A stretch of DNA of 63,850 nucleotides from Gemmiger sp. (GTDB taxonomy: Bacteria > Bacillota > Clostridia > Oscillospirales > Ruminococcaceae): the NCBI GenBank assembly GCA_963629755.1, contig CAVGKH010000001.1, positions 1 to 63,850 of the forward strand, given 5' to 3'. Of this stretch, positions 12,779-37,331 are shown piece after piece. Every line of letters starts with the position of its first letter. Within the stretch, counting starts at the first letter, position 1. The notes under the pieces are model-generated. The model had not been told where the DNA came from. It saw only the letters and a list, made by a program, of their open reading frames with translations, and ran no database searches. A program made the position numbers and the translations under genes.

Positions 12779-12801
12779 ATCAGCATTGCGCCGATTTTTT
12801 A

Positions 12802-14668: not shown

Positions 14669-14703
14669 AAAAAGCCGTACCTCTGATTTGCCAAAGGCAC
14701 GGC
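14669..14703 (-). terminator. intrinsic terminator of the riboswitch-controlled transport operon
   Basis: Minus strand GCCGTGCC..GGTACGGC stem followed by TTTTT. Confidence 0.65.
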
Positions 14704-14709
14704 TTTCGA

Positions 14710-15804
14710 TCATTCCAATATTCCCAGCTTCTGTGCCTCCTGCACAAGGCGACGGTTTTCCCGGTTCATTGCGCCGAAGGCGTGCTGTGGACACAGTACC
14801 TTTCGGCAGGTGCGCAGCACCTTGAGCGCTCTGTCTGCATCGGCCGCGCTCACCGGTTCAAAGGCCGGGGCTGTTATCACGCTGGCGGCCAGCGCTTTTG
14901 CCACCGGTGTTTCCACATCGTTTTCCGCCAGCACACCGGCTGCGAAGGGCACACCGCGGCGCTGCAGCTGTCGGTAAACCGGTATGCCAGCGCCCCCGCC
15001 GCCGATCACAAATACCTCGGGGCTGCCCTGCGGCGCTTCCAGCTCCAGGCTGCCAAACAGCGCATTATAGCTGCCGTGGGCCACTCCATACAGAGTTTCG
15101 ATATATTCCGGCGTAAAAATCTCCTCTGGCGTACCGCATTTATCAATATGGTCACCCGCAGCGCAAAGCACTTTATCTGAAATTTTCTGCGCCAGATCCA
15201 GCTCGTGCAGGGTCATGATCACAGTCATCTGCCGCTCTCGCACCAGTTCTTTTAAAATAGCCAGCAGCTCAAGCTTATGGCGGATATCCAAAAAAGAAGT
15301 AGGTTCGTCTAATATCAGCATCTCCGGCTCCTGGCAGAGTGCCCGGGCCAGCAGCACGCGCTGCTTCTGCCCGTCGCTGATCCGGTTGAACTGCCGCCCG
15401 GCCAGTTCGGCTGCGTGCACTTTTTGCAGCGCCGCATATACCTTTTCACGGTCAGCCGCGCTCAAAATGCCCAGGTGGCCGGTGTAGGGGTAACGCCCTG
15501 CGGCCGCCGCCTCAAAGCAGGTCATCAGCTCGGGGCGGCTGCGCTCGGTAAGCATTACCGCCATACGGCGGGCAGCCTCTTTTGCGTTCAGTTCGGCAAG
15601 GGTCTGCCCGTCCAGCACCGCGCGCCCGCCCAGCGGGGCCAGCTGCCGTGCAATGCTTTTCAGCAGCGTGGTTTTGCCTGCGCCGTTGGGGCCAATCAGC
15701 GTTACGATCTCACCTTTTTCAGCACAGAACTCCACCTCGCGCAGAACCGGCTTTTTGCCATAGCCGACTGACATTTTTTCCGTAAAAAACCATCGTTTTT
15801 CCAT
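14710..15804 (-). CDS. iron-siderophore/cobalamin-type ABC transporter ATP-binding protein with C-terminal extra domain
   Basis: Walker A GPNGAGKTT, LSGGQ-equivalent ISDGQKQR, Walker B ILDEPTSFLD. About 110 extra C-terminal residues. Confidence 0.8.
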   Translation of the reverse strand: MEKRWFFTEKMSVGYGKKPVLREVEFCAEKGEIVTLIGPNGAGKTTLLKSIARQLAPLGGRAVLDGQTLAELNAKEAARRMAVMLTERSRPELMTCFEAAAAGRYPYTGHLGILSAADREKVYAALQKVHAAELAGRQFNRISDGQKQRVLLARALCQEPEMLILDEPTSFLDIRHKLELLAILKELVRERQMTVIMTLHELDLAQKISDKVLCAAGDHIDKCGTPEEIFTPEYIETLYGVAHGSYNALFGSLELEAPQGSPEVFVIGGGGAGIPVYRQLQRRGVPFAAGVLAENDVETPVAKALAASVITAPAFEPVSAADADRALKVLRTCRKVLCPQHAFGAMNRENRRLVQEAQKLGILE

Positions 15805-15808
15805 CGGC

Positions 15809-16831
15809 TCAGCCCTCCTGCCCGGGTCGGCGCAGCATCATCCAGATCACGATCGGCGCGCCGAACACCGCCGTTACCGAGCTGATGCTCAGCTCGGTGG
15901 GCGCAAACAGAGTTCGCGCGACCAGATCGCAGCCCAGGCAGGCCGCGCTGCCGCCCAAAAAGCAGGCCGGCAGCAGCACCAGGGGCCGCCCGGTGCCAAA
16001 CAGGGCACGCATCAGCTGCGGCACTGCGATGCCCACAAAGCTGATAGGCCCCGCAAAGGCCGTAACGCAGGCCGAAAGCAGACTACTTACCAAAATCAGC
16101 GCCGCACGAAAGGCCCGTACATTCACGCCCAGGCCCGCCGCAGCACTTTCGCCCAGGCGGTAGGCATTCATGGGCTTTGCCAGCGCCAGGCAGGCCAGAA
16201 ATCCCGCTGCCGCCACCAGCGCCATCACGCGCACTCCGCCCCAGCTCATGCCGGAAAAGCTGCCCAGCGACCAGTTATGCAGATTCACGATGTTGGAGTC
16301 CTCGGCGAAGGTCACGGCAAAATCTGTAATGGCCGAGCAGATATACCCGATCATTACGCCGCCCACGATCAGCTGGCTCATGCGCCGAATTCGCACTGAG
16401 AGCAGCAAAATAAACCCGGTAGCGGCCAGCGCGCCCAAAAAGGCTGCTCCGATCATGCCCCACGAGCCCAGGGTCACGCCGCGCCCCAGCAAAAAGATCA
16501 TGGTCATGGCCACAAACAGCTTGGCCCCCGAAGAAATGCCCAGCACAAACGGCCCGGCAATGGGGTTTGAAAAATAGGTTTGCAGCAGGTAGCCGCTCAC
16601 GGCAAGGCAGCCGCCCAGCAGCAGGGCTGCCAACGCGCGCGGCAGGCGGATGGTGCGCACAATGCCCTCGGCCAGCGCATTTTTGCCCGGTGAAAGCAGT
16701 GCCTGCACTACCTCGGCGGGCGTAAGGCTCACGCTGCCCGCCCCAACACCGGCGGTAAACAGCGCCAGCACCGCCAAAATAAGCGCCGCAAAGCAAACGC
16801 CCCAGCGAAGCGCATCGTGTGTTTGTTCCAT
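15809..16831 (-). CDS. FecCD/BtuC family ABC permease
   Basis: 340 aa, about 9-10 TM helices. Motifs GAGSVSL and TIRLPRALAALLLG. Confidence 0.85.
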   Translation of the reverse strand: MEQTHDALRWGVCFAALILAVLALFTAGVGAGSVSLTPAEVVQALLSPGKNALAEGIVRTIRLPRALAALLLGGCLAVSGYLLQTYFSNPIAGPFVLGISSGAKLFVAMTMIFLLGRGVTLGSWGMIGAAFLGALAATGFILLLSVRIRRMSQLIVGGVMIGYICSAITDFAVTFAEDSNIVNLHNWSLGSFSGMSWGGVRVMALVAAAGFLACLALAKPMNAYRLGESAAAGLGVNVRAFRAALILVSSLLSACVTAFAGPISFVGIAVPQLMRALFGTGRPLVLLPACFLGGSAACLGCDLVARTLFAPTELSISSVTAVFGAPIVIWMMLRRPGQEG

Positions 16832-16836
16832 ACTGC

Positions 16837-17979
16837 TTATCCTTCCAGCTTATACAAATACTTTCCCTCGGTAAAATCCGGGTCAGAAAGCATGGTGTGC
16901 ACATCTACCAGAAAATCGGCCATGCTCATGGTTTCCTGAAAAAAGTTTTTGCCCGTGCAATACACGTGCCCGGCCTTTACGGCATCAAAATCGGCCAGCA
17001 CCGCGCTTTTCTGCAAAAGCTCGCCGATTGAATGCACCTCGCCGTCGATCGTGCTGTTATAAATCAGATAGTCGGCATCTTTAGCCGCTGCGTAAAACTG
17101 CTCCATCTGAACGGTCATGGTCGAGCGGGCGCTTTCATCGCCGTCGTCCAGGGCCAGATAGCTGCCGCCTGCCATTTCGATCATGCGGGCGATATAGTCG
17201 CTGTGTCGCCGCACATTTACTGTCCCGCTTGAGGTAATGTAGAAAAACGCTGCCGTGCCGCCCGCAGCGGGCTGCGAAAGCACCGGCTCTATCTCGGCCA
17301 GCTTTTCGGCATAAAGCTTTTCCGCTTCGGGCAATTTGCCCAGCAAAAGGCCGTACAGCTTGATCCACTCCATACGGCCCAGAGGGCTGCTCTCATAGCT
17401 CGAGCGCTCTACCAGCACCGGAATGCCCAGGCGCTCCAGCTGCTCTTTCACCTCGGGGGAATGCAGGATCATCGTGGATTCTATTGCTGCGCCGCATCCG
17501 CCCTGCAAAAGCTGCTCATAATCCGGTGCACTGTATTTGCCTGCAAAAGCGATCTGCCCGCTTTGCAGGGCCTCTTTCGCCTCGGGGATATACCACCCCT
17601 CGGCGTTCGTGCCCGAATAGGCAATACTGCCAAGGCCCTCTAACGAAACAAAAAAATCCATGGCACTGGTAGCGGCCAGATACGCATTTTCAATCGGTGT
17701 TTCGATCACGGTCATATCCTCGGGCAGACCGCTCGGCACGCATTCGCCGCGCGGGCACAAAAGATATTCACTGTCACCGATCATCAGCTGCGTATAGCCG
17801 CCCTCGAACTGGCGGGCCGAGAATTCATCGGTATATTCCAGCGGCACCTCGCCGGTTTCGGCAAGGCTATCCCAGGCGGGCGCCGCGGTCTGGCTGGCCG
17901 AGCTTTCGGCCGGGGCCGCCGCACAGCCTGCCAAGGCCAGCGCCAGCACCGCCGAAAGCAGCGCTTTTACTCTTTTCAC
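16837..17979 (-). CDS. BtuF/FhuD-type periplasmic-binding-protein lipoprotein
   Basis: Signal peptide with lipobox LALAGC. Class III SBP-like body. Sits directly upstream of the permease. Confidence 0.75.
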   Translation of the reverse strand: MKRVKALLSAVLALALAGCAAAPAESSASQTAAPAWDSLAETGEVPLEYTDEFSARQFEGGYTQLMIGDSEYLLCPRGECVPSGLPEDMTVIETPIENAYLAATSAMDFFVSLEGLGSIAYSGTNAEGWYIPEAKEALQSGQIAFAGKYSAPDYEQLLQGGCGAAIESTMILHSPEVKEQLERLGIPVLVERSSYESSPLGRMEWIKLYGLLLGKLPEAEKLYAEKLAEIEPVLSQPAAGGTAAFFYITSSGTVNVRRHSDYIARMIEMAGGSYLALDDGDESARSTMTVQMEQFYAAAKDADYLIYNSTIDGEVHSIGELLQKSAVLADFDAVKAGHVYCTGKNFFQETMSMADFLVDVHTMLSDPDFTEGKYLYKLEG

Positions 17980-18833
17980 TGCATTGCCTCAGGGTTTGTG
18001 AAGGTCAGTGTATAGTCAATCATGTGCGGTTGGCTCATGGCCGTGGTCTCTGCCTGCACCGGCAGTGCGGTGTTCATCGCGCTCACTGGGATCTCAAATA
18101 CAGAAAGATCGTTCTCATAAGCAGGTGTGTACTCGGTGCCGTTTACGATCATCAAATCGTAGTTTTTGCTGCTCCAAATGATCTTCGCAGTCATTTCGCC
18201 GTTTTCCACGGTCAAGGCTGCCGGGCTCTGCACGCTAGCGCGGCCGCTGCCGCCCTCCAGCGCCACCTCCACGGTATAGCTGCCATCGGCCAGAGCCTCG
18301 CTTTCGGCAGAATCGTCTGCCAGGGGCTGCGGGTCGGTCACGCTTACCTTGTGGTCGTACCAGGTGCCCTTTTTGCCCACCAGCGCCACATCAATCTCGG
18401 TGTCCAGTGCGGGCACAGGCACGGTAAAGGCATACACCTCATCGGTGGTGCCGTCGCTGTAATCCACAGTGTCGGTCACGGGTTCCAGCAGTTCTGCGCC
18501 TTCCTTCTGGGCCTGTTCAGCCGTGCCGGGGTACAGGTTCAGAATGCCCTTGCCTGCCAGCTTGATATAAATGCTCATCTGGCCGTTTTCCACGGTCAGA
18601 ACGCCCCGGCCCTCGCAAGCCTCGTTTACACGGAACATCGTGCTGTCGGTATCAAACTCGGCGCTGTACACGCCGTCAGGCAAAGCGGCCTCGTTTTCAC
18701 TGGCTGTGCTCTCGCTGGCCGGTGCGCTGACCTCTTCCACGCTTTCACTTACGGAAGAAGCCGCACTGCTGACGCAGCCCGCCAGGCTGGCAGCCAGTGC
18801 AGCCGCACACAAAACAGAAATTATTTTTTTCAT
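17976..18833 (-). CDS. lipoprotein with two tandem beta-rich domains, function unknown
   Basis: MKKIISVLCAAALAASLAGC lipobox. Internal repeat: DGVYSAEF..LTVENGQMSIYIKL and DGSYTVEV..LTVENGEMTAKIIW. ATGA overlap with the SBP gene. Confidence 0.6.
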   Translation of the reverse strand: MKKIISVLCAAALAASLAGCVSSAASSVSESVEEVSAPASESTASENEAALPDGVYSAEFDTDSTMFRVNEACEGRGVLTVENGQMSIYIKLAGKGILNLYPGTAEQAQKEGAELLEPVTDTVDYSDGTTDEVYAFTVPVPALDTEIDVALVGKKGTWYDHKVSVTDPQPLADDSAESEALADGSYTVEVALEGGSGRASVQSPAALTVENGEMTAKIIWSSKNYDLMIVNGTEYTPAYENDLSVFEIPVSAMNTALPVQAETTAMSQPHMIDYTLTFTNPEAMQ

Positions 18834-18880
18834 ACTGCTATTCCTCTTTCAGTTTTTTGCTGTGTTTCAAAGCATATTCT

Positions 18881-18915
18881 AAAAAACGGCCCTCCCGAAA
18901 TCATCGAAAGAGCCG
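18881..18915 (-). terminator. strand-specific internal terminator after the cbiK-like gene
   Basis: Minus-strand RNA CGGCUCUUUCG AUGAUUU CGGGAGGGCCG gives an 11-bp stem (3 G.U pairs) followed by UUUUUU. On the plus strand the same pairs are C-A mismatches. Confidence 0.55.
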
Positions 18916-18948
18916 CTTTTGCAACTTTATAAACTATCCGTGGCTGGT

Positions 18949-20163
18949 TTAGCCCTGCATGGCGGCAGCAGTGTGTGCCACATACAGCTGCTCGATAGCC
19001 TCGATGCGGCCCAGACCCTCGATCTGGCAGTCTACGCTCTCAAAGCCTGCAGCTTCCATCATGCTCTTCCAGGAATCATCGTCCTCACCGGCCATATCGT
19101 TGTTGGCATGGTCGCCTGCAACCACCATCAAGGGGCGCAGCACGATCTTGGTGTAGCCGGCAGCCTTCACAGCCTCGATCACAGACTCGCAGCTGGTCTC
19201 TTCCGGCTCGCCTTCTACCGTGCCGATGAACACATTCTCATAGCCCAGCTCGTTCATCTGGCTCTGCATCTGAGAGTAGCTGATCTTAGCAGTGTGAGAG
19301 GTGCCATGGCCCATGAACACAAAGGCCACGCTGTCCTCAGCGGCAGCAGCGGCAGATTCATAACCGGCAGTCTTTACAGCCTCGGCGGTGATATCCTCAG
19401 CCACAGCCTTCTTGTCGGCGTTCACAACGGTAGCATCGCTGCCAACCTCACCCATCAGAGGCTCGGCAACGGCAACGCTCTCAAACTTGTCGGCGTACTC
19501 GTTTACGGCCTCTACCATTTCGTCATACTCAGCGCCATGCATCAGATGGGTGGGCTGCACGACCAGGTTCTTTACGCCGTTTGCCACAGCGCGGTCCAGA
19601 GCCTGCTGCATGTTATCGATGTGCTCATCGTCGCGGGCCTGCACATGGTTGATGATGATCTGTGCGGTAAAGGCGCGGCGAACGCTCCAATCGGGGTTTG
19701 CCTCCTGAATGGCATCCTCAATGGCCTTGATATCCTTCACACGGCTGTCGTTGAAAGAAGTGCCGAAGCTTACCACGAGGATCTCGTTGTCGCCGATCTC
19801 ATCCTGGTTGCGGGGGTCATCCAGCGAAGCATCGCCGGTGTCGCGGCCAAAGTAATCGGGGGCGGCTTCCTCGCCCTCTACCAGCTCTTTCTGGGCATCG
19901 GTCAGGGCATCCCAGGCAGCCTTTGCCTCAGCGCACTGGGCATCGGTATTTTCGTTGCGTTCCTGCACATAGATGGCATCGATCAGCTCAGCCACATGGT
20001 CAGCGGCGGCCTGGTCGGCATCCTCGCTGGCGGCAGAGCTGACGCTTTCGCTGGCAGCAGGGGCCGAAGCGGCGGTGCTGGCAGAAGCAGCCGAAGAGCT
20101 GCAGCCTGCCAGCAGGCTGGCGGCCATAGCAGTGCTCACAAGAGCAGCAGTGATTTTTCTCAT
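18949..20163 (-). CDS. CbiK-fold (sirohydrochlorin cobaltochelatase family) lipoprotein, predicted extracytoplasmic
   Basis: Start set at ATG 20163 (AAGGAG RBS), giving MRKITAALVSTAMAASLLAGC (signal peptide plus lipobox). Ala/Ser linker follows. CbiK motifs QPTHLMHGAEY and FMGHGTSH are kept. Confidence 0.75.
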   Translation of the reverse strand: MRKITAALVSTAMAASLLAGCSSSAASASTAASAPAASESVSSAASEDADQAAADHVAELIDAIYVQERNENTDAQCAEAKAAWDALTDAQKELVEGEEAAPDYFGRDTGDASLDDPRNQDEIGDNEILVVSFGTSFNDSRVKDIKAIEDAIQEANPDWSVRRAFTAQIIINHVQARDDEHIDNMQQALDRAVANGVKNLVVQPTHLMHGAEYDEMVEAVNEYADKFESVAVAEPLMGEVGSDATVVNADKKAVAEDITAEAVKTAGYESAAAAAEDSVAFVFMGHGTSHTAKISYSQMQSQMNELGYENVFIGTVEGEPEETSCESVIEAVKAAGYTKIVLRPLMVVAGDHANNDMAGEDDDSWKSMMEAAGFESVDCQIEGLGRIEAIEQLYVAHTAAAMQG

Positions 20164-20254
20164 AGTTTTTCTCCTTTTTTCTCGGCAGTACTTCGCTGCC
20201 TGTTTAGGTAAGGGCTGACGCCCCGCTTTAAAACGGTATGCAAGCTGAACATCA

Positions 20255-20291
20255 GCAAAAAGCGCTCCACAGCCCAAAAGCTGAGGAGCGC
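20255..20291 (-). terminator. riboswitch expression-platform terminator
   Basis: Minus strand GCGCTCCTCAGC TTTTGG GCTGTGGAGCGC (11 of 12 bp) followed by TTTTTG, downstream of the B12 box. Confidence 0.65.
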
Positions 20292-20384
20292 ACAAAAATA
20301 AGCCCTTTTCACGGCTATGCTTTTTTTGCCTGCCCGCCAAGCTTCGTGGCTTTTGGGTACTGCTTTCTGCACCCGCAGCAGCGA

Positions 20385-20572
20385 CACGGCAGGTTTCCTG
20401 GCTTACGGATCAAACGCTGTGCACCGGCCTTCCCAAAAGCATATGCCTTCAGTGGCACAGGTGATGCCCAGCTTTCCGCTTACAGTGACGAGATCGTACG
20501 GGGTTTTCACCCGTTTCCCTTTTACCCGCAGCCTCACGCCTTCCGGCGGGTTTTGGCAGCGGCACCGCCCGC
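20385..20572 (-). promoter_or_regulatory. cobalamin (B12) riboswitch aptamer
   Basis: Minus strand reads GGTGCC, GGTAAAAGGGAAACGGGTGAAAACCCCG, CGTCACTGTAAGCGG, GCCACTG, TGGGAAGGCCGG and the B12 box AAGCCAGGAAACCTGCC (20389-20405). Confidence 0.85.
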
Positions 20573-20592
20573 AAAATTGAATACCAACGCAT

Positions 20593-20621
20593 ATCATACC
20601 ACCGGGCCGGTAAAAAAGCAA
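20593..20621 (-). promoter_or_regulatory. putative promoter of the riboswitch operon
   Basis: Minus strand TTGCTT, 17 nt, TGgTATGAT (extended -10). Confidence 0.45.
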
Positions 20622-23287: not shown

Positions 23288-23959
23288 TTATTTCCAGCCG
23301 CGCTTGGCGGGGTCCAGCGTGTCCGCCGCCGTGTATAAAAGCGCATTGCAGATGGCCGCCGCCACGCTGGAGCCTCCCTTGCGGCCCATGGCCGCTATGC
23401 AGGGCACACCCAGCTTTTGGCATGCGGCAAAGATCATCTCTTTGCTTTCCACCACATTCACAAAGCCCACCGGCACGCCAATCACCAGCGCGGGGCGCGC
23501 ACCCTGCTGCATAAGCTCTGTCAGGCGAACCAGCGCCGTGGGGGCGTTGCCCACCGCGATCACTGCGCCCGGGTTCTCGGCCATGGCGTGCTCCATGCTT
23601 ACGGCAGCGCGGGTAGTGCCGCGCTGGTTGGCCTCGGCTGCCACTGCCGGGTCAGCCATATAGCAAAGCGCCTGCCCGCCCAATTTGGCAAGGCTGGGCT
23701 TGCTTAAACCGGCCAGCGCCATGTTGGTATCGGTCACGATCACCGCACCCCTATGCAGGGCGTTTATGCCCTGCTGCACAGCGTTTGGAGTAAATTTCAG
23801 ATTTTCCGCATAATCAAAATCGGCGCTGGCATGAATGGCCCGGTATACCACTGCCCGGTTTTCAGCCGGTATCTCCCGCCCCATCTGCGCCAGCTCGGCG
23901 GCAATGATCTGCATACTGGCGTTTTCAATGCCCGCCGGGGCCGCATGTTCCAGCTTCAA
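23288..23959 (-). CDS. cbiC: cobalt-precorrin-8 methylmutase
   Basis: 223 aa. Motifs IAVGNAPTAL and GVPVGFVNVVESKE. Confidence 0.85.
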   Translation of the reverse strand: MKLEHAAPAGIENASMQIIAAELAQMGREIPAENRAVVYRAIHASADFDYAENLKFTPNAVQQGINALHRGAVIVTDTNMALAGLSKPSLAKLGGQALCYMADPAVAAEANQRGTTRAAVSMEHAMAENPGAVIAVGNAPTALVRLTELMQQGARPALVIGVPVGFVNVVESKEMIFAACQKLGVPCIAAMGRKGGSSVAAAICNALLYTAADTLDPAKRGWK

Positions 23960-24468
23960 AACTCCACTCCCTCTCTGGCGGCAATGCCTTTTTCATAAGG
24001 ATGCTTACGGCACTGCATTTCGGTGTAATAGTCGGCGGCATCCACCATCCAGCCGGCAGGGCCGCGCCCGGTAAGCACCACCTCGCGCCCAGCCGGCTTT
24101 TGCAGCACCGCCCTGCGCAGCACCTGCTCTTCCACCAGCCCCAGACGGCAGGCCGCGCAGGCTTCGTCTAAAATCAAAAGGTCACTGGGCAGCGCCAGCG
24201 CTTTCTGCAGATTTTCGGTCTGCAGGGCTTTAGTTTCGGCTTTTTCGGTATCGTTCATCTGAAACACGAATTTCTGCCCGGCCTTGCCGCGCAGCACCAC
24301 TGCGCCCAGCTTTTGCAGCCCGGCCAGCTCGCCGGTCTCGCTGCCCTTCAAAAACTGCACGATCACCACTTTTTCGCCATGCCCCAGCGCGCGCAGCGCA
24401 AGGCCCATGGCCGCCGTTGTTTTGCCCTTGCCATCGCCGCAGTATAAATGCACCAGGCCCTGTTTCAT
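23956..24468 (-). CDS. cobO: cob(I)yrinic acid a,c-diamide adenosyltransferase (CobO/BtuR type)
   Basis: 170 aa. P-loop GDGKGKTTAAMG. 4-nt overlaps on both sides. Confidence 0.8.
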   Translation of the reverse strand: MKQGLVHLYCGDGKGKTTAAMGLALRALGHGEKVVIVQFLKGSETGELAGLQKLGAVVLRGKAGQKFVFQMNDTEKAETKALQTENLQKALALPSDLLILDEACAACRLGLVEEQVLRRAVLQKPAGREVVLTGRGPAGWMVDAADYYTEMQCRKHPYEKGIAAREGVEF

Positions 24469-25946
24469 ACCCTGCCCTCCAAAATATCATATACCAGCTT
24501 CATATCCAGCGCGCTGCGCACACCATCAGCCAGCTTATCGTACTGGCTCTGCCGCCATTCCTTTTGCGGCATGGCCGGGGCAGCAGGCTCGATGCCCTTG
24601 GCATCACACAGCTTTTGGGCCAGCGTTTCCAGCGCACTGTCGGTATCAAACAATCCGTGCAGGTAGGTGCCCTCGCAACTGCCGGAGATGCAACCGTCCA
24701 CTTCCCCGTTTTCAAAGCGGATAAACGGCTGCCCGTTTACCACTGTGCGCCCCTGGTGGATCTCGTACCCTGCCAGCTGCGCGCCCTCTAAAAGGCCGCC
24801 CAGGCAGCGGGCCGTTTTGCGGGTACGGGTCTTATCCGGGGTAAACACGGTTTTGCAGTCTAAAAGCCCCATGCCGCGCACCTCGGGGGTATCGCCCTCG
24901 CAGCCGTGCGGGTCATGCAGTGCCTTTCCCATCATCTGATAGCCGCCGCACACGCCCAAAATCGGCACCCCCCACTCGTTCAAATGCAGAATGCGCGCCT
25001 CCAGCCCGCACTCGCGCAGCCAGATAAGATCGGCTGTAGTGCTTTTGGTGCCGGGCAGAATGATCAGGTCCGGCTCGCCCAGCTCAGCCACGCTGCCCAC
25101 ATACCGCACCGAAAGCGCGGGGTGGCCCGCCAGCGGCGCAAAATCGGTAAAGTTGCTGATATGCGGCAGGCGCACTACTGCAATATCCACTGTGCCCACA
25201 CCGTTTTTGGCGTTTAGCGCCGGGGCCAGTGAATCCTCTTCGTCAATTTCCACCTTCAGCATGGGCACCACGCCCGCCACCGGAATGCCGGTGAGCGCGC
25301 GCAGCTGGTCAAGCCCGGGCTCTAAAAGGCGCACATCGCCGCGGAACTTATTGATGATAAGCCCTTTGATGCGCTGCTTTTCTTCGGGGGCCAGCAGGGC
25401 TGCCGTGCCGTACAGCTGGGCAAACACGCCGCCGCGGTCGATATCTCCGGCCAGCAGCACAGGGGCATCCACCAGCTCGGCCAGGCCCATATTTACGATA
25501 TCGTCCTTGCGCAGGTTGATCTCGGCCGGGCTGCCCGCGCCCTCGATCACGATCACATCGTACTCTTCAGCCAGGCTGTTGTAGGCAGCCAGAATCTCGG
25601 GGATCAGCTGCTTTTTATAGGCAAAATATTCCCGTGCGCTCATCTGCCCGCGAATTTCGCCGTTCACGATCACCTGGCTGCCGGTATCACTGCTGGGCTT
25701 GAGCAGCACCGGGTTCATGCGCACATCAGGCTCTACCCCGGCGGCCTCGGCCTGCATATACTGCGCGCGCCCCATTTCCAGCCCGTCGGCTGTAACGGCG
25801 CTGTTCAGCGCCATGTTCTGGCTTTTAAATGGTGCGGCACGCAACCCGTCCTGCGCAAAAATGCGGCACAGAGCCGCGCATAAAAGGCTTTTGCCCGCGC
25901 CCGACATAGTGCCCTGCACCATAATGCATCTGACCTTTTTTGCCAT
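24465..25946 (-). CDS. cbiP: cobyric acid synthase
   Basis: 493 aa. N-terminal VQGTMSGAGKS and a C-terminal GATase-1 domain (GVCGGYQMMG). Confidence 0.9.
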   Translation of the reverse strand: MAKKVRCIMVQGTMSGAGKSLLCAALCRIFAQDGLRAAPFKSQNMALNSAVTADGLEMGRAQYMQAEAAGVEPDVRMNPVLLKPSSDTGSQVIVNGEIRGQMSAREYFAYKKQLIPEILAAYNSLAEEYDVIVIEGAGSPAEINLRKDDIVNMGLAELVDAPVLLAGDIDRGGVFAQLYGTAALLAPEEKQRIKGLIINKFRGDVRLLEPGLDQLRALTGIPVAGVVPMLKVEIDEEDSLAPALNAKNGVGTVDIAVVRLPHISNFTDFAPLAGHPALSVRYVGSVAELGEPDLIILPGTKSTTADLIWLRECGLEARILHLNEWGVPILGVCGGYQMMGKALHDPHGCEGDTPEVRGMGLLDCKTVFTPDKTRTRKTARCLGGLLEGAQLAGYEIHQGRTVVNGQPFIRFENGEVDGCISGSCEGTYLHGLFDTDSALETLAQKLCDAKGIEPAAPAMPQKEWRQSQYDKLADGVRSALDMKLVYDILEGRV

Positions 25947-25964
25947 ATTCTTTCCCCTTTATTT

Positions 25965-26027
25965 TAATTGAGATTTGTATGCCCTCGGTCGAATGGGCAC
26001 TCTGTAAGGGCTGCGCCAACCCCCGCT
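25965..26027 (+). repeat. truncated copy (D) of the nested-hairpin repeat family
   Basis: AATTGAGATTTGTATGCCCTCGGTCGAATGGGCAC aligns with the left end of copy B (AATTGGGGTTTGTGTTCCCCAGGTCGAACGGGCAC). The following TCTGTAAGGGCTGC matches copy A. Confidence 0.65.
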
Positions 26028-27083
26028 TCACTCTTTTAAAACCTCCGCCAGTACTGCCAGCAAGGCCTTGTTTTCGGCTTCTGTGCGTATGGCTGTGCGG
26101 TACCAGCCGCGGCCGAGGCCGGGGTAATTTTCGCAGCTGCGGATTACCACACCGCGCTGCGCCAAGCCCTCCAGCAGCGGGCGCTTTGTATAAAACAAAA
26201 GATAGTTTGCCTTGCCCGGCACTACGAGCAGACCCAGCGCCTGCAGGCCCTCCATCATGCGCGGGCGCTCAGTTTGCAGCAGCGCGCGCACTTTTTCGGG
26301 ATACTGTATATCCTGCAAGGCGGCTATGCCCGCCGCCTGCGCGGGGCCGTTCACGCTCCAGGGCTGGGCGGCCGCCGCCAGCTTTTGCAAAAGCGCCGCA
26401 TCGCTGCATAGGCACCAGCCCAGCCGCAGCCCGGCCATACCCCAAAGCTTGGTAAATGCGCCCAAGATCACAAGCTCAGGCCAATCGGCCAGCAGGCCGC
26501 GGCTGGTTGTGCTTTCTCGCTCATTTAAAAAGCCCACAAAACATTCATCCACCACCAGCTTTGCCCCCACGGTGCGGCAACGGCGCAGCGCTGCCAGAAT
26601 CACCTCGCGGCTCACGGTCTGCCCGGTCGGGTTGCCTGGCTGGCACAAAAAAGCCAGCTTGGTGCCGGGTCGGATGCGGGCTGCAAAATCGGCCGTGACC
26701 GTAAAATCATTTTTTTCATACAGAAAAAAGCGCTCGGTCTGCCAGCCAAAAAATGCCATCGCCGCTTCGTATTCGGCAAAGCTTGGGGCCGTTACCAGCC
26801 CGCGCCCGGGCCCCAGCACCGCCGCCAGCCGCCAGATAAGGTCCGCTGCACCGTTGCCGCACAGTACCCAGTCTGCGGGCAGCGAAAAATATTCGCCCAG
26901 TGCCGCGCGCAGGCCGCGGCATAAGGGGTCGGGGTAGCGCTCGGCAGCCAAAGGGTCGGCCATGGCTGCCTTTACGCTCTCCGGCAGGCCCAGCGGCGAA
27001 ACATTGGCCGAAAAATCCAGAGGCTCTTTGCCGAACTGTGCTTTATACCCAGCCCAGTCGCCCCCGTGCACCAGCTTATCCAC
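26028..27083 (-). CDS. cobD: threonine-phosphate decarboxylase (class I/II aminotransferase fold)
   Basis: 351 aa. GTG start with AGGAGGG RBS. PLP-fold motifs. Sits between cbiB and cbiP. Confidence 0.75.
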   Translation of the reverse strand: MDKLVHGGDWAGYKAQFGKEPLDFSANVSPLGLPESVKAAMADPLAAERYPDPLCRGLRAALGEYFSLPADWVLCGNGAADLIWRLAAVLGPGRGLVTAPSFAEYEAAMAFFGWQTERFFLYEKNDFTVTADFAARIRPGTKLAFLCQPGNPTGQTVSREVILAALRRCRTVGAKLVVDECFVGFLNERESTTSRGLLADWPELVILGAFTKLWGMAGLRLGWCLCSDAALLQKLAAAAQPWSVNGPAQAAGIAALQDIQYPEKVRALLQTERPRMMEGLQALGLLVVPGKANYLLFYTKRPLLEGLAQRGVVIRSCENYPGLGRGWYRTAIRTEAENKALLAVLAEVLKE

Positions 27084-27099
27084 GCTTTTCCCTCCTATT

Positions 27100-27252
27100 T
27101 GTTGAAAGTTTTAAAAAAATGTTGAAAACTCAAAATTTTGATTTTATCATCGTTATTTTATATGGTTTTACAGTGCGTAAAGCAGGGCAAAAAACGCCAT
27201 TTTCGGGCGGTTTTCAACATGGTTTTTCCACAGTGAAACCAAGTTTTCAACA
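27100..27252. promoter_or_regulatory. four copies of a 10-mer TGTTGAAAAC in the cbiB-cobD spacer
   Basis: Plus strand TGTTGAAAGT 27100-27109, TGTTGAAAAC 27120-27129, GTTTTCAACA 27210-27219, GTTTTCAACA 27243-27252. Confidence 0.6.
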
Positions 27253-28203
27253 CCCCGCCAGCACGCGGAGCCCGGCCCCCAGCAAAACAGCCAAAACACT
27301 GCCCGTCAGCATCACATGGTTAGTGCGGGCAATATCGCAGGGCTCGATGGGGCGCAGACTGTCGCCGATGGTCTTTTTATCATAATACTGCCCAAAATAC
27401 CAGGCAGGCCCGGCCAGCTGCACGCCCAGCGCCCCAGCGCAGGCCGATTCGGTCTGCGCTGAATTGGGGCTTGCATGGCGGCGGTGGTCACGCCGCCAAA
27501 TACGCCAGGCACCCGGCAGGCTCTGCCCGCACAGCCCCGCGCACAAAATCCACAAAAGCGCCGCCAAACGGCTGGGCACATAGTTGGCGGCATCGTCCAG
27601 ATGGGCCGCCGCACGGCCAAAATACAGATATTTTTCGTTTTTATAGCCCACCATGCTGTCCATGGTGTTGATGCTTTTATAGCAAAGCGCCAGCGGTGCG
27701 CCGCCCAAAAGCATGTAGAGCAGCGGCGCGATCACACCGTCTGAAAAATTTTCGGCCACGGTCTCCACGGCCGCTTTGGCTACGCCTGCTTCGGTAAGTA
27801 CCTGAGTATCGCGGCCAACAATGCGGCCCACGGCCTTTCGCGCGGCGGGCAGATCCCCTTTTTCAAGCTGGCGCTGCACAGCAGTGCTTTCGGTATAAAG
27901 GCCCTTGGCGGCCAGCGCCTGCCAGCACCACACTGTCTGCACAAAAAGCCCCAGCAGCGGGTGCAGCCGCGCCGCTGCCCAGCATACAAGGCCGGTAAGT
28001 GCCAGCGTGCCCAGCGGCAGTGCGGCCGCCAGCACGCGCCCTGCCTGCAAAAGCCCCTGTTCGTTAGCCGGAAACACCTGCCGCAGCCACTTTTCCAGCG
28101 CCGAGATCACTTTGCCCATATACACCACTGGGTGCGGCATCCACTCTGGGTCTCCCAAAAGCAGATCAAGGCAAAAGCCCAGCACAATGGCCGCCGTTAC
28201 CAT
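27247..28203 (-). CDS. cbiB: adenosylcobinamide-phosphate synthase
   Basis: 318 aa membrane protein. LLGDPEWMPHPVVYMGK is the CbiB/CobD signature. Confidence 0.85.
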   Translation of the reverse strand: MVTAAIVLGFCLDLLLGDPEWMPHPVVYMGKVISALEKWLRQVFPANEQGLLQAGRVLAAALPLGTLALTGLVCWAAARLHPLLGLFVQTVWCWQALAAKGLYTESTAVQRQLEKGDLPAARKAVGRIVGRDTQVLTEAGVAKAAVETVAENFSDGVIAPLLYMLLGGAPLALCYKSINTMDSMVGYKNEKYLYFGRAAAHLDDAANYVPSRLAALLWILCAGLCGQSLPGAWRIWRRDHRRHASPNSAQTESACAGALGVQLAGPAWYFGQYYDKKTIGDSLRPIEPCDIARTNHVMLTGSVLAVLLGAGLRVLAGC

Positions 28204-28808
28204 GTGTGCGGCTCCTTGGTGCAGCAGATCTGCTCAGCCAGGGTAAGAATATGCTCACCTGCCGCCCACCCCGCAGGGTCTACATGAAGGCGGTAGCCAC
28301 AGCCATTGGGCGCACACCAGCGGTAATAATCCTCTTTGGGGCGGCCCATAGCCTCCATGGCGGCCATCTGGGTGCCGCCGTGCGCCACGATCACCAGCGG
28401 CTCCTCGGGTGTTTGAAGGCCAAGCTCTACCAACTGCTCCATGGCCTTTACCACACGCGCCGTGAATTCGCTCTTGCTCTCACCGCCGGGGCAGCGGCCC
28501 TTGGCATCGCGGCTGATCCAATCCAGGTAAACAGGGTCGTGCTCCATATCCTGATAGCTCTGCCCTTCAAACCTGCCAAAGCACATTTCCATAATGCCGG
28601 GCACTTCTACCTGCTCTACGCCCGGAAACAGAATCTCTGCCGTTTCTTTGGCGCGGCCCAGCGGCGAAACATATACCTTTTTCGGCGTAAAGCCCGCTGG
28701 GCGCAGTGCGGTGCGGCCCTCGGGCGAAAGTGGGATCTCCTGCTGGCCCTGGTATTTTTTCAGCTTGTTATACACGGTCTCGCCGTGGCGGATCAGATAC
28801 ACATCCAT
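28197..28808 (-). CDS. cobC: histidine-phosphatase family protein, probable alpha-ribazole phosphatase
   Basis: 203 aa. RHGET catalytic motif (LIRHGETVYN). Operon context. Confidence 0.65.
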   Translation of the reverse strand: MDVYLIRHGETVYNKLKKYQGQQEIPLSPEGRTALRPAGFTPKKVYVSPLGRAKETAEILFPGVEQVEVPGIMEMCFGRFEGQSYQDMEHDPVYLDWISRDAKGRCPGGESKSEFTARVVKAMEQLVELGLQTPEEPLVIVAHGGTQMAAMEAMGRPKEDYYRWCAPNGCGYRLHVDPAGWAAGEHILTLAEQICCTKEPHTW

Positions 28809-28829
28809 GCTTATTTCCTCATTTATAAA

Positions 28830-29162
28830 TCATTTTAATTTTGTCGGCAGCCCGCAGAATACCCGCACGGCTTCTTCGGCTTTTTCCGCCAACAGTATGC
28901 TCAAGCGGCCCGCAGCCTCGCGCTGGGCGCGCTGCACTTTATCAATGGGCACTACACCGCCGCCTACCTCGGCAGCCGTTACGGCAGAGCGCTCGGCCAG
29001 CCTTTCGGCCAATGCCGCCAGCTGTGCGGGGGTCTCGCTGCCTGTTACCAGGTTTTGCACATCCAGCGCAGCCTTTGCCATGAGCTCTTCTTCACTCCAG
29101 CCAAAGCGCTGCTTCAAATAGGTCTTTTTGCCGCTGAAAAGCGGCCCCGTTACAAAGATCAT
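28830..29162 (-). CDS. truncated CobU-like P-loop protein (mini-CobU)
   Basis: 110 aa from ATG 29162 (ATGA overlap with the cobS stop). P-loop VTGPLFSGKK and a CobU-like C-terminus AEVGGGVVPID..GLPTKLK. The His-containing central segment is absent. Confidence 0.55.
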   Translation of the reverse strand: MIFVTGPLFSGKKTYLKQRFGWSEEELMAKAALDVQNLVTGSETPAQLAALAERLAERSAVTAAEVGGGVVPIDKVQRAQREAAGRLSILLAEKAEEAVRVFCGLPTKLK

Positions 29163-29941: not shown

Positions 29942-29964
29942 TGTTTTTCTGTTTTTCTTTGTTT

Positions 29965-30486
29965 TTATTTATGCCGGATCATCACACCGGCGGCGGCTTC
30001 ATACACACGGTCGGCCATAGCGGCGATGGTGTTATTCAGCCTTGCCAGCGTTTTTAAATATTCCAGCGTTTCTCCCTCATATTCTGTGCCGCCGCTGGTA
30101 AGCTCGCCGCTCACGATTACAAGATCTTCGCACTGCGCGGCCAGCGCCTGCACTCCGGCCAAAATGGCATCGAAGGCTTCGGCCCCCGCGCTCTCCGGGT
30201 TGAACATTTCATTGGCGCACAGGTTGGTAAGATCTTCCAACAGCACGCAGGCGCCGGGCGGCACCTTTTCTGCCGCCGCCAAAAGCCCGGTGGGGGCTTC
30301 AAGGGTATCAAACTGCTTCTGTGCCCGCATGGCACGGTGCTTCTGCACCCGCAGGCGGGATTCTTCGTCCCACACCTGCATAGTAGCAATATAAATTCTC
30401 GGCACGGCGGATGAGCAGCGCAGAACCAGCGCCTCGGCTCCCTCGCTTTTGCCGCTGGCCGCGCCGCCCACAACAAGGCTCAGCAT
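29965..30486 (-). CDS. cobU: adenosylcobinamide kinase/adenosylcobinamide-phosphate guanylyltransferase
   Basis: 173 aa from ATG 30486 (MLSLVVGGAASGKS). IYIAT..QKHR His region present. The long Arg/Gly-rich upstream extension of the ORF was rejected. Confidence 0.8.
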   Translation of the reverse strand: MLSLVVGGAASGKSEGAEALVLRCSSAVPRIYIATMQVWDEESRLRVQKHRAMRAQKQFDTLEAPTGLLAAAEKVPPGACVLLEDLTNLCANEMFNPESAGAEAFDAILAGVQALAAQCEDLVIVSGELTSGGTEYEGETLEYLKTLARLNNTIAAMADRVYEAAAGVMIRHK

Positions 30487-36549: not shown

Positions 36550-36553
36550 GGCT

Positions 36554-37318: not shown

Positions 37319-37331
37319 TGTTTTTTCCTCT

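Follow-up and report, generated by a model that had tools for sequence, protein, structure and literature searches.

A cobalamin riboswitch-gated operon in Gemmiger that joins an exported CbiK-fold lipoprotein and a tandem NEAT lipoprotein to an ABC importer

Background

The closest characterised analogue of the operon described here is the Iht/FetB operon of P. gingivalis, as well as the periplasmic CbiK (CbiKP) of D. vulgaris. The only cobalamin riboswitch of P. gingivalis gates genes for a TonB-dependent receptor, the CbiK-type protein FetB, a substrate-binding protein, a permease and an ATPase, and this operon was experimentally found to be repressed by coenzyme B12. Its products are named IhtA (the receptor, also 'BtuB', PGN_0704), IhtB (FetB, PGN_0705), IhtC, IhtD and IhtE. 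The literature views Iht as a haem/iron system and FetB, which is an active chelatase (PMC13065792), as a Mn-PPIX chelatase. The organism is missing precorrin-2 synthesis but keeps the remaining pathway, and it has been published as a 'precorrin-2 salvager'. The literature does not appear to have connected the riboswitch paper with those on Iht.

Other described systems share parts of this design. In the Isd-type relays (IsdA/B/C/H-IsdEF of S. aureus, IsdX1/X2 of B. anthracis and Hbp1/Hbp2-Lmo2184 of Listeria), serial surface NEAT domains hand a metallo-tetrapyrrole on to a binding lipoprotein of class III and an importer of the FecCD type. In Bacteroides, several surface lipoproteins (BtuG, BtuH and BtuJ) take up a cobalt tetrapyrrole and relay it towards the cell interior; their genes share a transcript, and its cobalamin riboswitch, with genes of btuFCD type, and such loci also hold chelatase homologues (CobN-like BtuS). 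Their folds are unrelated to those reported here (beta-propeller BtuG, BtuH C-domain, DUF4465), they depend on an outer membrane, and their established cargo is cobamides. Canonical CbiK proteins are leaderless, have 260-276 residues, start at strand beta1 and are flanked by cobA/hem genes, and cobalt enters as the free ion via CbiMNQO.

Predicted 'precorrin-2 salvagers' include F. prausnitzii A2-165 and KLE1255, Subdoligranulum variabile, Gemmiger formicilis and many Lachnospiraceae (PMC6461909, Table S10), and no uptake route is known for them (PMC6461909). Cobamide capture outside the cell in Gram-positives is described as 'entirely uncharacterized' in a review of September 2026. An initial sequence-only reading of the present locus knew of no characterised Gram-positive system of this kind. 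We likewise found no experimental description of the operon or cassette in the literature.

Results and discussion

A conserved five-gene operon behind a cobalamin riboswitch

The window (the whole 63.85-kb stretch of Gemmiger DNA analysed) contains five co-directional genes on the minus strand, which are tightly packed, with gaps of 2-115 nt or overlaps. They encode, in order, a CbiK-fold lipoprotein, a tandem NEAT lipoprotein, a Peripla_BP_2 lipoprotein, a FecCD permease and an ABC ATPase. All five were found where the sequence-only reading had put them, and the three exported proteins, encoded by the 5' genes, all carry an LAGC lipobox.

A promoter-like site read from the sequence (20593..20621, minus strand) is composed of a -35 element, TTGCTT (20621-20616), a 17-nt spacer and an extended -10 element, TGgTATGAT (20601-20593, with TATGAT at 20598-20593). 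The extended -10 is good; the -35 matches 3/6 consensus bases, below the threshold of our consensus scan, which is why the site was absent from the scan list. The riboswitch aptamer begins about 13 nt downstream, a distance that fits a transcription start site. It spans 20371..20580 (minus strand), includes the B12 box AAGCCAGGAAACCUGCC and matched the full RF00174 model (1-189) in an Rfam search with 94.7 bits, the gathering score being 31.5 (E 2.7e-22); it was the only such match in the window. The expression platform holds an intrinsic terminator (20256..20291, minus strand) with a 12-bp interrupted GC stem and U5, GCGCUCCUCAGC-UUUUGG-GCUGUGGAGCGC then UUUUUG, which is present in the minimum-free-energy fold (dG -21.4 kcal/mol). 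Promoter, riboswitch with B12 box and strong hairpin had each been claimed from the letters and were all found in place. Most likely, high intracellular corrinoid causes the riboswitch to terminate transcription at 20291-20256, and at low corrinoid the five proteins are made. The operon closes with a rho-independent terminator, also read from sequence (14669..14705, minus strand; 10-bp stem AAGCCGUGCC/GGUACGGCUU then a U-run), which explains the left boundary drawn earlier; beyond it, after AT-rich spacer sequence, the abgT gene has a promoter-like site of its own.

The pair of CbiK and NEAT genes recurs in 80/80 related loci fetched, and upstream of the CbiK gene Rfam finds a riboswitch in 16 of 17 loci and nhmmer in 70 of 80; the arrangement is therefore not due to chance. 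A hairpin and T-run comparable to the platform terminator occur between riboswitch and start codon in 54/66 related loci. This survey of co-occurring riboswitch, lipoprotein CbiK and transporter, proposed earlier as a check, revealed conservation of both operon structure and riboswitch, and the cassette is present in hundreds of gut Clostridia species. Across families the CbiK protein is 71-82% identical, compared with 45-60% for the other four. Relatives also contain natural fusions (CbiK-D1, CbiK-D1-D2, D2-SBP and D1-D2-SBP, where D1 and D2 are the NEAT domains and SBP is the binding protein), which imply a physical hand-over in that order.

An exported CbiK-fold lipoprotein

Gene 1 (18949..20163, minus strand) encodes a 404-aa protein that matches Pfam CbiK with 246 bits and misses the NCBIfam equivalog cut-off (198 versus 400). 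A signal peptide with lipobox (Cys21) is followed by an Ala/Ser linker, a three-helix N-module (residues ~43-96) and the CbiK domain (126-403). Structure prediction, another check suggested at the outset, gave the claimed CbiK fold: the AF2 model has TMt 0.90 to 1qgo (CbiK) and 2xvx (CbiKP) and 0.88 to 9b86 (FetB), with an rmsd of 2.0 A to CbiKP. By alignment, H286 (in MGHGTSH), E317 (TVEGEP) and H352 (VAGDHANND) correspond to the catalytic H145/E175/H207 of S. enterica CbiK. The triad is invariant in 70/70 family members, and the N-module is conserved too. The sequence-only reading had described two histidine motifs as intact; all residues are indeed intact, but THLMHGAEY, although conserved, is not the second metal-binding motif, the triad being H286/E317/H352.

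The window has no other CbiK homologue, and the adjoining cbi cluster lacks one. Together with the intact catalytic residues, this could mean that the start was mis-read and that the protein begins downstream of the lipobox, as an ordinary cytoplasmic cobaltochelatase serving that cluster. We regard this as very improbable. The lipoprotein ATG has an AGGAG 8 nt in front of it, bearing out the start chosen from its ribosome-binding site, and no further in-frame Met follows until residue ~185, inside the domain. Signal peptide and lipobox are kept in about 65-70 of 80 homologues and, with the 75-residue N-module (lipobox to domain), across about 70 species, whereas true cytoplasmic CbiKs begin directly at strand beta1. 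In many species CbiK is translationally fused to the exported NEAT domain, and one locus (L028) has an exported and a cytoplasmic CbiK side by side. These features support a predicted extracytoplasmic, lipid-anchored protein with its catalytic residues intact.

D. vulgaris CbiKP, mentioned in the sequence-only reading, is likewise a CbiK paralogue that is exported and has kept its active site intact, and differs in being soluble in the periplasm, in its type I signal peptide and in having no NEAT partner. The comparison stands structurally, but CbiKP is not the only close relative, as the P. gingivalis operon is homologous gene by gene (see below). Separately, on a Desulfovibrio-like contig (60% GC), RF00174 was found directly upstream of an exported CbiK-type gene.

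A tandem NEAT lipoprotein and a class III importer

Gene 2 (17976..18833, minus strand) encodes the second lipoprotein, of 285 aa, which the sequence-only reading had recognised by its lipobox and left unidentified. It proved to be a tandem NEAT-domain protein (D1, residues ~50-171; D2, ~180-283) with the fold of Isd haem receptors. HMMER detected no similarity of gene 2 to solved NEAT domains, but its AF2 model (domain pLDDT 88-93) had IsdH N2N3, IsdB, IsdX1 (TMt 0.67, rmsd 2.7), Hbp2, IsdC, IsdA and Shp as top Foldseek matches, and 57/60 family members matched Pfam NEAT. The two domains are homologous to each other (hhalign 93.7%), and on the last strand of D2, 275 of 291 sequences have HxxxY and 13 have YxxxY. 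With this identification the operon becomes an Isd-like relay. Unlike the Isd systems, it uses lipoprotein anchors instead of sortase/LPXTG, a B12 riboswitch instead of Fur and, in most members, HxxxY instead of YxxxY; it also has a chelatase in front and is set among cobamide biosynthesis genes.

The next gene (16837..17979, minus strand) starts with GTG, overlaps the stop of the NEAT gene and encodes a class III (Peripla_BP_2) substrate-binding lipoprotein of 380 aa (Pfam 83.8 bits), which in other species is N-terminally fused to NEAT D2. The earlier label 'BtuF-type' does not hold at the sequence level: the family profile had no BtuF match at E<=1, and among proteins of solved structure it came closest to Lmo2184, from the Listeria NEAT/srtB locus (E 4.9e-7). 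The FecCD/BtuC-type permease (15809..16831, minus strand; 340 aa; Pfam FecCD 257.6 bits) scores best against the NCBIfam BtuC family, at 206 bits, below the cut-off of 334. The ABC ATPase (14710..15804, minus strand; 364 aa; ABC_tran 106 bits) has an extra C-terminal domain of ~110 aa, named PF27219 MJ0874 in relatives; in NCBIfam it scores best, again below cut-off, against PRK09536, a family of corrinoid ABC transporter ATPases, with residues 10-345 aligned.

P. gingivalis Iht and the Gemmiger operon share a cobalamin riboswitch (confirmed on a P. gingivalis contig at 74.7 bits) and, behind it, genes for a surface lipoprotein of CbiK fold (35% identity), a class III SBP that is also a lipoprotein (27%), a FecCD permease (41%) and an ABC ATPase (35%). 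The Iht operon differs in belonging to a diderm, in starting with a TonB-dependent receptor, in placing FetB on the outer membrane, and in having neither a NEAT protein nor the N-terminal three-helix module.

These relatives raise the question of haem, porphyrin or iron acquisition of the Isd/Iht type, in which NEAT would take haem, the surface CbiK would have the dechelatase role put forward for IhtB, haem or iron would be imported, and B12 control would be secondary. The solved structural neighbours of gene 2 are all haem receptors, haem is bound by both FetB and CbiKP, the closest relative of the binding protein belongs to the Listeria NEAT haem locus, and NCBI names gene 2 homologues 'iron transporter'. 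We nevertheless judge this reading unlikely: the cobalamin riboswitch is upstream in about 70/80 loci, the operon is embedded in cbi/cob clusters without any iron-related neighbour gene, and most members have His where NEAT domains canonically place the axial Tyr. Moreover, the P. gingivalis iht genes are unresponsive to iron/haem starvation, yet the operon responds to coenzyme B12.

Cobamide genes around the operon and a possible role in precursor salvage

An anaerobic cobamide cluster identified by Pfam, cbiD-(L)-(F)-G-(H)-J-ET-A-cobT-U-S-C-cbiB-cobD-cbiP-cobA(btuR)-cbiC, lies at 23288..39157 on the minus strand, and no chelatase, cobalt transporter, hem/cobA genes or own riboswitch were found in it. 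Leaderless CbiK, CbiM/Q, HemC, HemL and CobA were absent from the window and from 87 loci, L028 excepted; the scan covered the window and these loci, and other parts of these genomes may carry a leaderless CbiK/CbiX or CbiMNQO. In 39/85 loci cbi/cob genes are directly adjacent and co-oriented. Faecalibacterium and Gemmiger loci show the order riboswitch-CbiK-NEAT-SBP-permease-ATPase::CbiD-CbiL-F-G-H-J-ET, where CbiD replaces the ATPase C-domain in frame in 8 independent loci, a fusion that could merely mirror gene adjacency.

As best explanation we tentatively propose, at somewhat less than an even chance, that the operon is a B12-repressed cell-surface front end for precursor salvage, which metallates sirohydrochlorin outside and imports the product. 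Three lipoproteins on the outward face of the membrane (CbiK chelatase, tandem NEAT protein and class III binding protein) and a pump formed by permease and ATPase would constitute an acquisition relay delivering an outside tetrapyrrole to the cytoplasmic Cbi enzymes. Surface CbiK would bind scavenged sirohydrochlorin (oxidised precorrin-2) and insert Co2+ extracellularly; the cobalt-isobacteriochlorin would pass from NEAT D1 to NEAT D2 (axial His/Tyr on the last strand) and to the binding protein and be pumped in, where CbiL and the remaining pathway, encoded next door, would take over. In a variant, the cell's own exported sirohydrochlorin would serve as cobalt carrier. Import of macrocycle and cobalt together would explain clusters without cytoplasmic CbiK, CbiMNQO and hem/cobA. 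The invariant triad, the conserved lipobox, the twofold NEAT fold, the fusions, a binding protein nearest to a NEAT locus, the adjoining cbi genes, the ATPase::CbiD fusion, the presence of carriers among published precorrin-2 salvagers and the parallel of P. gingivalis, with its homologous B12-responsive operon and missing precorrin-2 synthesis, all argue for this reading. Against it, some carriers (Roseburia) are predicted complete cobamide producers, and in stool uroporphyrin III is the only such precursor reported.

A corrinoid capture relay is the main alternative, somewhat more doubtful in our estimate. The surface CbiK fold and two NEAT domains would have been recruited to bind finished or late corrinoids (cobamides, cobinamide, cobyric or cobyrinic acid) and pass them to the binding protein and a BtuCD-type importer, as a Gram-positive counterpart of the Bacteroides BtuG/BtuH/BtuJ relay, where multi-lipoprotein relays serve the same purpose. 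A B12 riboswitch with a FecCD-type ABC importer is the established signature of corrinoid uptake in Firmicutes (C. difficile), and the families that permease and ATPase match best in NCBIfam, BtuC and corrinoid BtuD, weigh against precursor salvage even though both are below cut-off. So does the operon's position before the late, salvage genes cbiP-cobT, not early ones, in more than 20 Lachnospiraceae loci. Stool is rich in corrinoids, including cobinamide; F. prausnitzii A2-165 requires cobalamin in defined medium and therefore must import it; and the His on the D2 ligand strand is a classic cobalt-corrin ligand. However, both folds must then have switched ligand class, and strict keeping of the H/E/H metal-insertion triad is left without a reason. 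Corrinoid capture also does not account for a binding protein lacking detectable BtuF similarity, for adjacent cbi clusters that lack chelatase and cobalt transporter, or for the position heading cbiD-L-F-G and the ATPase::CbiD fusion.

The sequence-only reading had inferred an extracellular CbiK-fold handler of corrinoids or their precursors that feeds an ABC importer under B12 control. Conservation of lipobox, operon and riboswitch supports this; genomic context leans towards a tetrapyrrole precursor more than that reading suggested. The system is uncharacterised and very common, and may be a missing route for B12 or its building blocks into many gut bacteria.

Canonical CbiK + CbiMNQO operons, represented by control loci L105, L117 and L137, share with the Gemmiger operon the chelatase family, catalytic residues, riboswitch control and a position at the head of cbi genes; here, by contrast, an exported chelatase is paired with a transporter of the chelate-importing type. 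In L028, the single exception noted above, cytoplasmic CbiK and CbiL directly follow the ATPase, the point where both routes would converge.

Results and discussion

A cobalamin riboswitch and a terminator precede the operon genes

The cobalamin riboswitch model RF00174 matched the 63.85-kb window once, on the minus strand at 20371-20580 (Rfam, 94.7 bits, E 2.7e-22; gathering score 31.5). The match spans model positions 1-189, i.e., a full-length aptamer including the B12 box, and confirms the riboswitch that had been recognised from sequence alone. About 13 nt before the aptamer start is a promoter-like site (minus strand), composed of TTGCTT at 20621-20616, a 17-nt spacer ending in TGg, and TATGAT at 20598-20593, as the sequence-only reading had it. 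A terminator located 80 nt 3' of the aptamer (20291-20256, minus strand), which that reading had placed at 20255-20291, folds as a 12-bp interrupted GC hairpin followed by UUUUUG (dG -21.4 kcal/mol), and the gene 1 start codon follows after 93 nt. The proposed left boundary of the operon, 14669, coincides with another hairpin and U-run on the minus strand at 14705-14669, read directly from the sequence. The operon promoter and the two terminators were called from direct reading and folding, and a scan for consensus promoters and terminators listed none of the three; it skips the promoter because the -35 element matches just three of six consensus bases, whereas the extended -10 element is good.

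When the minimum-free-energy fold of the leader was inspected for an anti-terminator, the B12-box CCUGCC was seen to pair with a downstream GGCAGG, and this pairing coexists with the terminator hairpin. By analogy with its class, the riboswitch is probably an OFF switch; the homologous Porphyromonas gingivalis leader is the only one among these leaders with experimentally shown repression.

The first gene encodes an exported CbiK

Gene 1 encodes a protein of 404 aa that starts with an ATG at 20163, preceded 8 nt upstream by AGGAG. Its N-terminus, MRKITAALVSTAMAASLLAGC, consists of a signal peptide and a lipobox, and is followed by an Ala/Ser linker, a three-helix module (residues ~43-96) and a CbiK domain (residues 126-403; Pfam PF06180, 246 bits). 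The AlphaFold model of the protein resembles Salmonella enterica CbiK (1qgo; TM 0.90, rmsd 2.6 A), Desulfovibrio vulgaris periplasmic CbiKP (TM 0.90) and P. gingivalis FetB (TM 0.88). His145, Glu175 and His207 of S. enterica CbiK align with H286, E317 and H352, all three of which are invariant in a 45-sequence alignment; every one of 70 aligned homologues has H286, and at least 95% of them share the motifs of E317 and of H352. The sequence-only reading had named two intact histidine motifs. One of them, THLMHGAEY, is indeed conserved, but the second metal-binding motif is VAGDHANND and not the one proposed.

Against NF047852, the NCBIfam equivalog for the cytoplasmic pathway enzyme, gene 1 scored 198 bits and did not reach the cut-off of 400. 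Its lipoprotein signal peptide and a further 100 N-terminal residues are both absent from cytoplasmic CbiKs, and a lipobox start was found in ~65-70 of 80 CbiK homologues. The three-helix module (window 19876-20037, minus strand) lies between the lipid anchor and the CbiK domain and is strongly conserved (AAD.VA.LIDAIYVQ ... AWDALTDAQK..V.GE.A.PDYFGRDTGDAS); it has no Pfam family and is not in FetB, CbiKP or cytoplasmic CbiK.

A mis-called start could in principle conceal an ordinary cytoplasmic CbiK. We consider this hardly credible and rejected it, given the ribosome-binding site in front of the lipoprotein ATG, the conservation of the leader and of the three-helix module, the fusions of the protein to exported domains in other species, and the co-occurrence of such proteins with a real cytoplasmic CbiK. 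The lipobox-bearing start originally chosen for gene 1 is thus retained.

The closest relative by score (P0121, 664 aa, at 726-2720 of locus L081) carries two CbiK domains in one frame behind a leader of the lipoprotein type, and may have arisen either as a natural tandem or by joining to a cytoplasmic cbiK.

The second gene encodes a predicted tandem NEAT lipoprotein

The second LAGC lipoprotein of the sequence-only reading is present as gene 2, a product of 285 aa with an N-terminal lipobox; a C-terminal sortase/LPXTG sorting signal was not found in it. Its score against Pfam NEAT (PF05031), 25.0 bits, is below the gathering score of 32.8, whereas 57 of 60 family members match NEAT at E<=0.01 (best 1.3e-9). 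The two halves of the protein are homologous to each other (hhalign probability 93.7%). Domain pLDDT of its AlphaFold model was 88-93, and the top Foldseek matches of the model were solely NEAT haem receptors: IsdH N2N3, IsdB, IsdC, IsdA, Hbp2 and Shp (probability 1.00 for each of these proteins), and IsdX1 (TMt 0.67, rmsd 2.7 A). Taken together, these matches, the homologous halves and the family-level NEAT hits identify gene 2, as modelled, as a tandem NEAT lipoprotein with two predicted eight-stranded NEAT beta-sandwich domains, D1 and D2.

Sequence searches of the PDB gave no significant match for gene 2 itself, and profiles of its family or of D2 alone likewise retrieved no NEAT chain; the fold is visible from the predicted structure only. 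When the register is set by where the strands lie in the model, HxxxY occupies the last strand of D2 in 275 of 291 homologues and YxxxY in 13, and D1 carries an invariant W-Y-D-H motif in the same comparison. As judged by strand position, this is the putative place of the YxxxY iron ligand of NEAT domains. The gene 2 family comprises 1,843 representative clusters at E<=1e-3, and its NEAT-like subfamily also occurs as 4-7 repeats in proteins of 883-1965 aa (P0389, P0391, P0409, P0437, P0470 and P0485).

A binding protein and importer complete the operon

The remaining genes encode a Peripla_BP_2 lipoprotein (gene 3), a FecCD permease (gene 4) and an ABC_tran ATPase (gene 5), all by Pfam, and the five genes are separated by overlaps or very short gaps. 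When the gene 3 family profile was compared with the PDB, the nearest solved relative was Lmo2184 (E 4.9e-7) from the Listeria NEAT/srtB locus, where it is the binding protein, and no BtuF chain appeared at E<=1; on these grounds assignment of gene 3 as BtuF-type was rejected. The best NCBIfam match of gene 4 was BtuC (206 bits, cut-off 334), and that of gene 5 the archaeal corrinoid BtuD PRK09536 (221, cut-off 537). At its C-terminus, gene 5 is extended by a domain of ~110 residues that is called PF27219 in relatives. The earlier description of a BtuFCD-like importer therefore stands as to the FecCD permease and the ATPase, but not as to the BtuF-type binding protein or equivalog-level BtuC and BtuD.

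The cassette is widespread in gut Firmicutes

A one-genome-per-species scan with gene 1 found at least 404 stretches encoding close relatives. The best 80 of these (69-82% identity) belong to Lachnospiraceae (Roseburia, Blautia, Agathobacter, Eubacterium ramulus, Butyrivibrio and others) and Oscillospiraceae (Faecalibacterium, Gemmiger and Pseudoflavonifractor). Among named homologues, the nearest are those from Subdoligranulum, Gemmiger and Pseudoflavonifractor, which places the window probably in Oscillospiraceae. A gene 2 homologue follows gene 1 in all 80 loci, and ~60 have the complete five-gene order. Of 17 loci searched with Rfam, 16 have RF00174 upstream and in the same orientation; by nhmmer, a homologue of the window riboswitch lies just 5' of the cassette in 70 of 80, and most of the others have no upstream sequence. 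A chance pairing of riboswitch and CbiK was rejected on these counts, and the association first seen in the window recurs in related genomes. Between riboswitch and start codon, a terminator-like hairpin was present in 54 of 66 loci.

The arrangement of D1 and D2 differs between species: they are either free or form an extension, which lies C-terminally on the CbiK lipoprotein or N-terminally on the substrate-binding protein (SBP). CbiK-D1 fusions of 527-558 aa are encoded in ~17 loci (L002, L007, L021, L026, L028, L036, L039, L043, L048, L049, L052, L070, L072-L075, L077, L080), CbiK-D1-D2 fusions of 665-690 aa in L069 and L074, D2-SBP fusions of ~480-525 aa in L010, L012, L017, L028, L036, L046, L073, L075, L077 and L080, and an apparent D1-D2-SBP fusion of 630 aa in L056. 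From these fusions, we argue that the four predicted extracytoplasmic modules work together in the order CbiK, D1, D2, binding protein.

A minimal form, consisting of the riboswitch, a lipoprotein CbiK and a single NEAT domain, lacks an adjoining ABC transporter and is followed by genes that look unrelated (L002, L008, L018, L021, L043, L049, L053, L057, L066, L076, L078 and L083). Exported CbiKs with RF00174 directly upstream were also found outside Clostridia. A Desulfovibrio-like contig with 60% GC encodes one with a type I signal peptide (L091, 6331-7789), and on a 43%-GC contig (L099, 6693-10966) a lipoprotein CbiK is encoded together with a binding protein, a permease and a di-NEAT protein whose signal peptide is of type I.

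The operon lies among cobamide biosynthesis genes

A complete anaerobic cobamide cluster of 17 genes, identified with Pfam, lies 3 kb from the operon (39157-23288, minus strand): cbiD, three TP-methylases, cbiG, cbiJ, cbiET, cbiA, cobT, cobU, cobS, cobC, cbiB, cobD, cbiP, cobA/btuR and cbiC. The cluster contains neither a chelatase nor a cobalt transporter, lacks hem/cobA genes and does not have its own riboswitch, and the exported CbiK is the sole CbiK homologue in the window. Among 85 related loci, 39 have directly adjoining, co-oriented cbi/cob genes. In many Lachnospiraceae loci the ATPase is followed by cbiP-cobT, and the Faecalibacterium/Gemmiger order is riboswitch-CbiK-NEAT-SBP-permease-ATPase-cbiD-cbiL-cbiF-cbiG-cbiH-cbiJ-cbiET. 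In eight independent Faecalibacterium/Gemmiger loci, the ATPase frame continues stop-free into CbiD (cobalt-precorrin-5B methyltransferase), which takes the place of the PF27219-type C-terminal domain of the window ATPase and gives products of 629-661 aa (L015 11389-13314; L030 7710-9632; L032 11187-13091; L041 11363-13258; L060 9637-11532; L064 11362-13251; L081 5855-7759; L167 14408-16393).

Neither a leaderless CbiK nor CbiM/Q, HemC, HemL or CobA was found in the window or in 87 loci (~7-10 kb on each side), with the exception of L028, where a 254-aa cytoplasmic-type CbiK (MERGILVVSFGTT...) and CbiL lie directly 3' of the ATPase. In three control loci with a true cytoplasmic CbiK (L105, L117 and L137), the protein begins at strand beta1 and its neighbours are cobA/hem genes, cbiL and cbiMNQO.

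Relation to known systems

The nearest counterpart is the Iht system of P. gingivalis. Its IhtB/FetB (PDB 9B86), a lipoprotein of the outer membrane, has the CbiK fold, binds haem and makes Mn-PPIX, with haem/porphyrin binding and chelatase activity in vitro (PMC13065792). The ihtABCDE genes encode a receptor, FetB, a binding lipoprotein, a permease and an ATPase. P. gingivalis has a single cobalamin riboswitch, which is located upstream of PGN_0704 ('BtuB') and represses with coenzyme B12, and PGN_0705 is ihtB. Consistent with these reports, a P. gingivalis contig (L087) has RF00174 (74.7 bits) ahead of genes for a 757-aa receptor, for FetB (99% identical) and for a binding protein, permease and ATPase; each of these except the receptor is homologous to the corresponding window gene. 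Iht/FetB-type loci thus combine an exported CbiK with a class III binding protein, FecCD permease and ATPase, the same set as in the window, and IhtB/FetB and CbiKP, like gene 1, have a signal peptide or lipobox before the CbiK domain. Isd-type relays, in contrast, depend on sortase (LPXTG) anchoring and iron/Fur control, whereas this operon has a lipobox and a cobalamin riboswitch.

B12 riboswitches, exported CbiKs, NEAT relays and type II ABC importers are each already known, and the Bacteroidota Iht operon is a partial precedent. Our literature search found no description of a riboswitch-gated lipoprotein CbiK and tandem NEAT relay heading the cbi genes of Firmicutes that are dominant in the gut.

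Possible functions of the operon

A riboswitch-led, terminator-controlled operon is thus embedded in cobamide biosynthesis genes, and its exported chelatase, NEAT domains and binding protein stand beside a chelate-type ABC importer. Judging from the encoded sequences, CbiK with its catalytic residues intact, both NEAT domains and the binding protein all face outward from the membrane. The 'precorrin-2 salvagers' of Shelton et al. include Faecalibacterium prausnitzii A2-165 and KLE1255, Subdoligranulum variabile, Gemmiger formicilis and many Lachnospiraceae; in these, all ALA-to-precorrin-2 genes are absent, the corrin pathway is kept and no transporter is known. The same authors noted this loss, with the corrin pathway kept, for P. 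gingivalis, and comparative genomics yielded ~180 'tetrapyrrole precursor salvager' species without a known transporter (PMC6461909). F. prausnitzii A2-165 requires cobalamin in defined medium.

Our tentative preference is that the operon may be a precursor-salvage front end of the cobamide pathway. Surface CbiK would bind sirohydrochlorin and insert cobalt; the cobalt-loaded product would pass from D1 to D2 and the binding protein, be imported, and join the pathway at CbiL. Each fold would then retain its known ligand class. The catalytic triad would be invariant because surface CbiK metallates, and a front end of this kind would explain why a cytoplasmic chelatase and a cobalt transporter are missing and why the operon stands before cbiD-L-F-G. 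It would also account for the ATPase::CbiD fusions, the L028 arrangement, and the agreement with the published list of precorrin-2 salvagers, P. gingivalis among them. The specific proposal that lipid-anchored CbiK inserts cobalt extracellularly into scavenged or self-exported sirohydrochlorin, and that NEAT domains take the resulting cobalt-isobacteriochlorin to the importer (its ATPase fused to CbiD in Faecalibacterium) as the missing uptake route of precorrin-2 salvagers, is more doubtful. Were it true, the cobalt step of anaerobic B12 synthesis would take place outside the cell, a 25-year-old cobalamin 'enigma' in P. gingivalis would be resolved, and Iht/FetB would move from iron to B12 metabolism.

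Capture of finished or late corrinoids is a serious possibility, if somewhat short of an even chance. The surface proteins would bind cobamides, cobinamide or cobyrinate, as do BtuG/H/J of Bacteroides, whose B12 loci encode these unrelated surface lipoproteins and a CobN-like BtuS. In Firmicutes, riboswitch-gated FecCD importers are established in this role; BtuC and BtuD are the families that the permease and ATPase match best, the cbiP-cobT neighbours fit, corrinoids are plentiful in stool, and a His, which predominates at the putative ligand position, suits cobalt corrins. It leaves the retained catalytic residues and the missing chelatase unexplained. Haem or iron uptake, which the folds would also suit, is improbable, given that the riboswitch is conserved, that the genomic context is one of cbi genes and that iht of P. 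gingivalis does not respond to iron.

A September 2026 review described extracellular capture of cobamides in Gram-positives as 'entirely uncharacterized'. The operon is a widespread, riboswitch-marked candidate for filling this gap, the salvager transporter gap, or both. Faecalibacterium, Gemmiger/Subdoligranulum, Roseburia, Blautia and Agathobacter rank with the most abundant bacteria of the human gut, and acquisition of B12 or its precursors by such genera shapes cross-feeding and competition in the gut. To our knowledge, NEAT domains have so far been known only as haem receptors; the precursor-salvage reading, if true, would extend their ligand range past haem and give a physiological rationale for the exported CbiK paralogues FetB/IhtB and CbiKP. 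Caution is also warranted with 'sirohydrochlorin cobaltochelatase' annotations in gut Firmicutes, which may tally the exported protein as a pathway enzyme and thereby affect predictions of B12 prototrophy.

Other features of the window

Directly 3' of the operon is an AbgT-family transporter gene (10323-14352, minus strand) with its own promoter-like site at 14540-14512. In a related locus (L166), AbgT is followed by M20 peptidases, a p-aminobenzoyl-glutamate-type utilisation set, and the gene appears unrelated to the B12-riboswitch operon. The window also contains a complete tRNA at 1252-1325 (plus strand) and another at 63799-63850 (minus strand) that is cut by the contig end.
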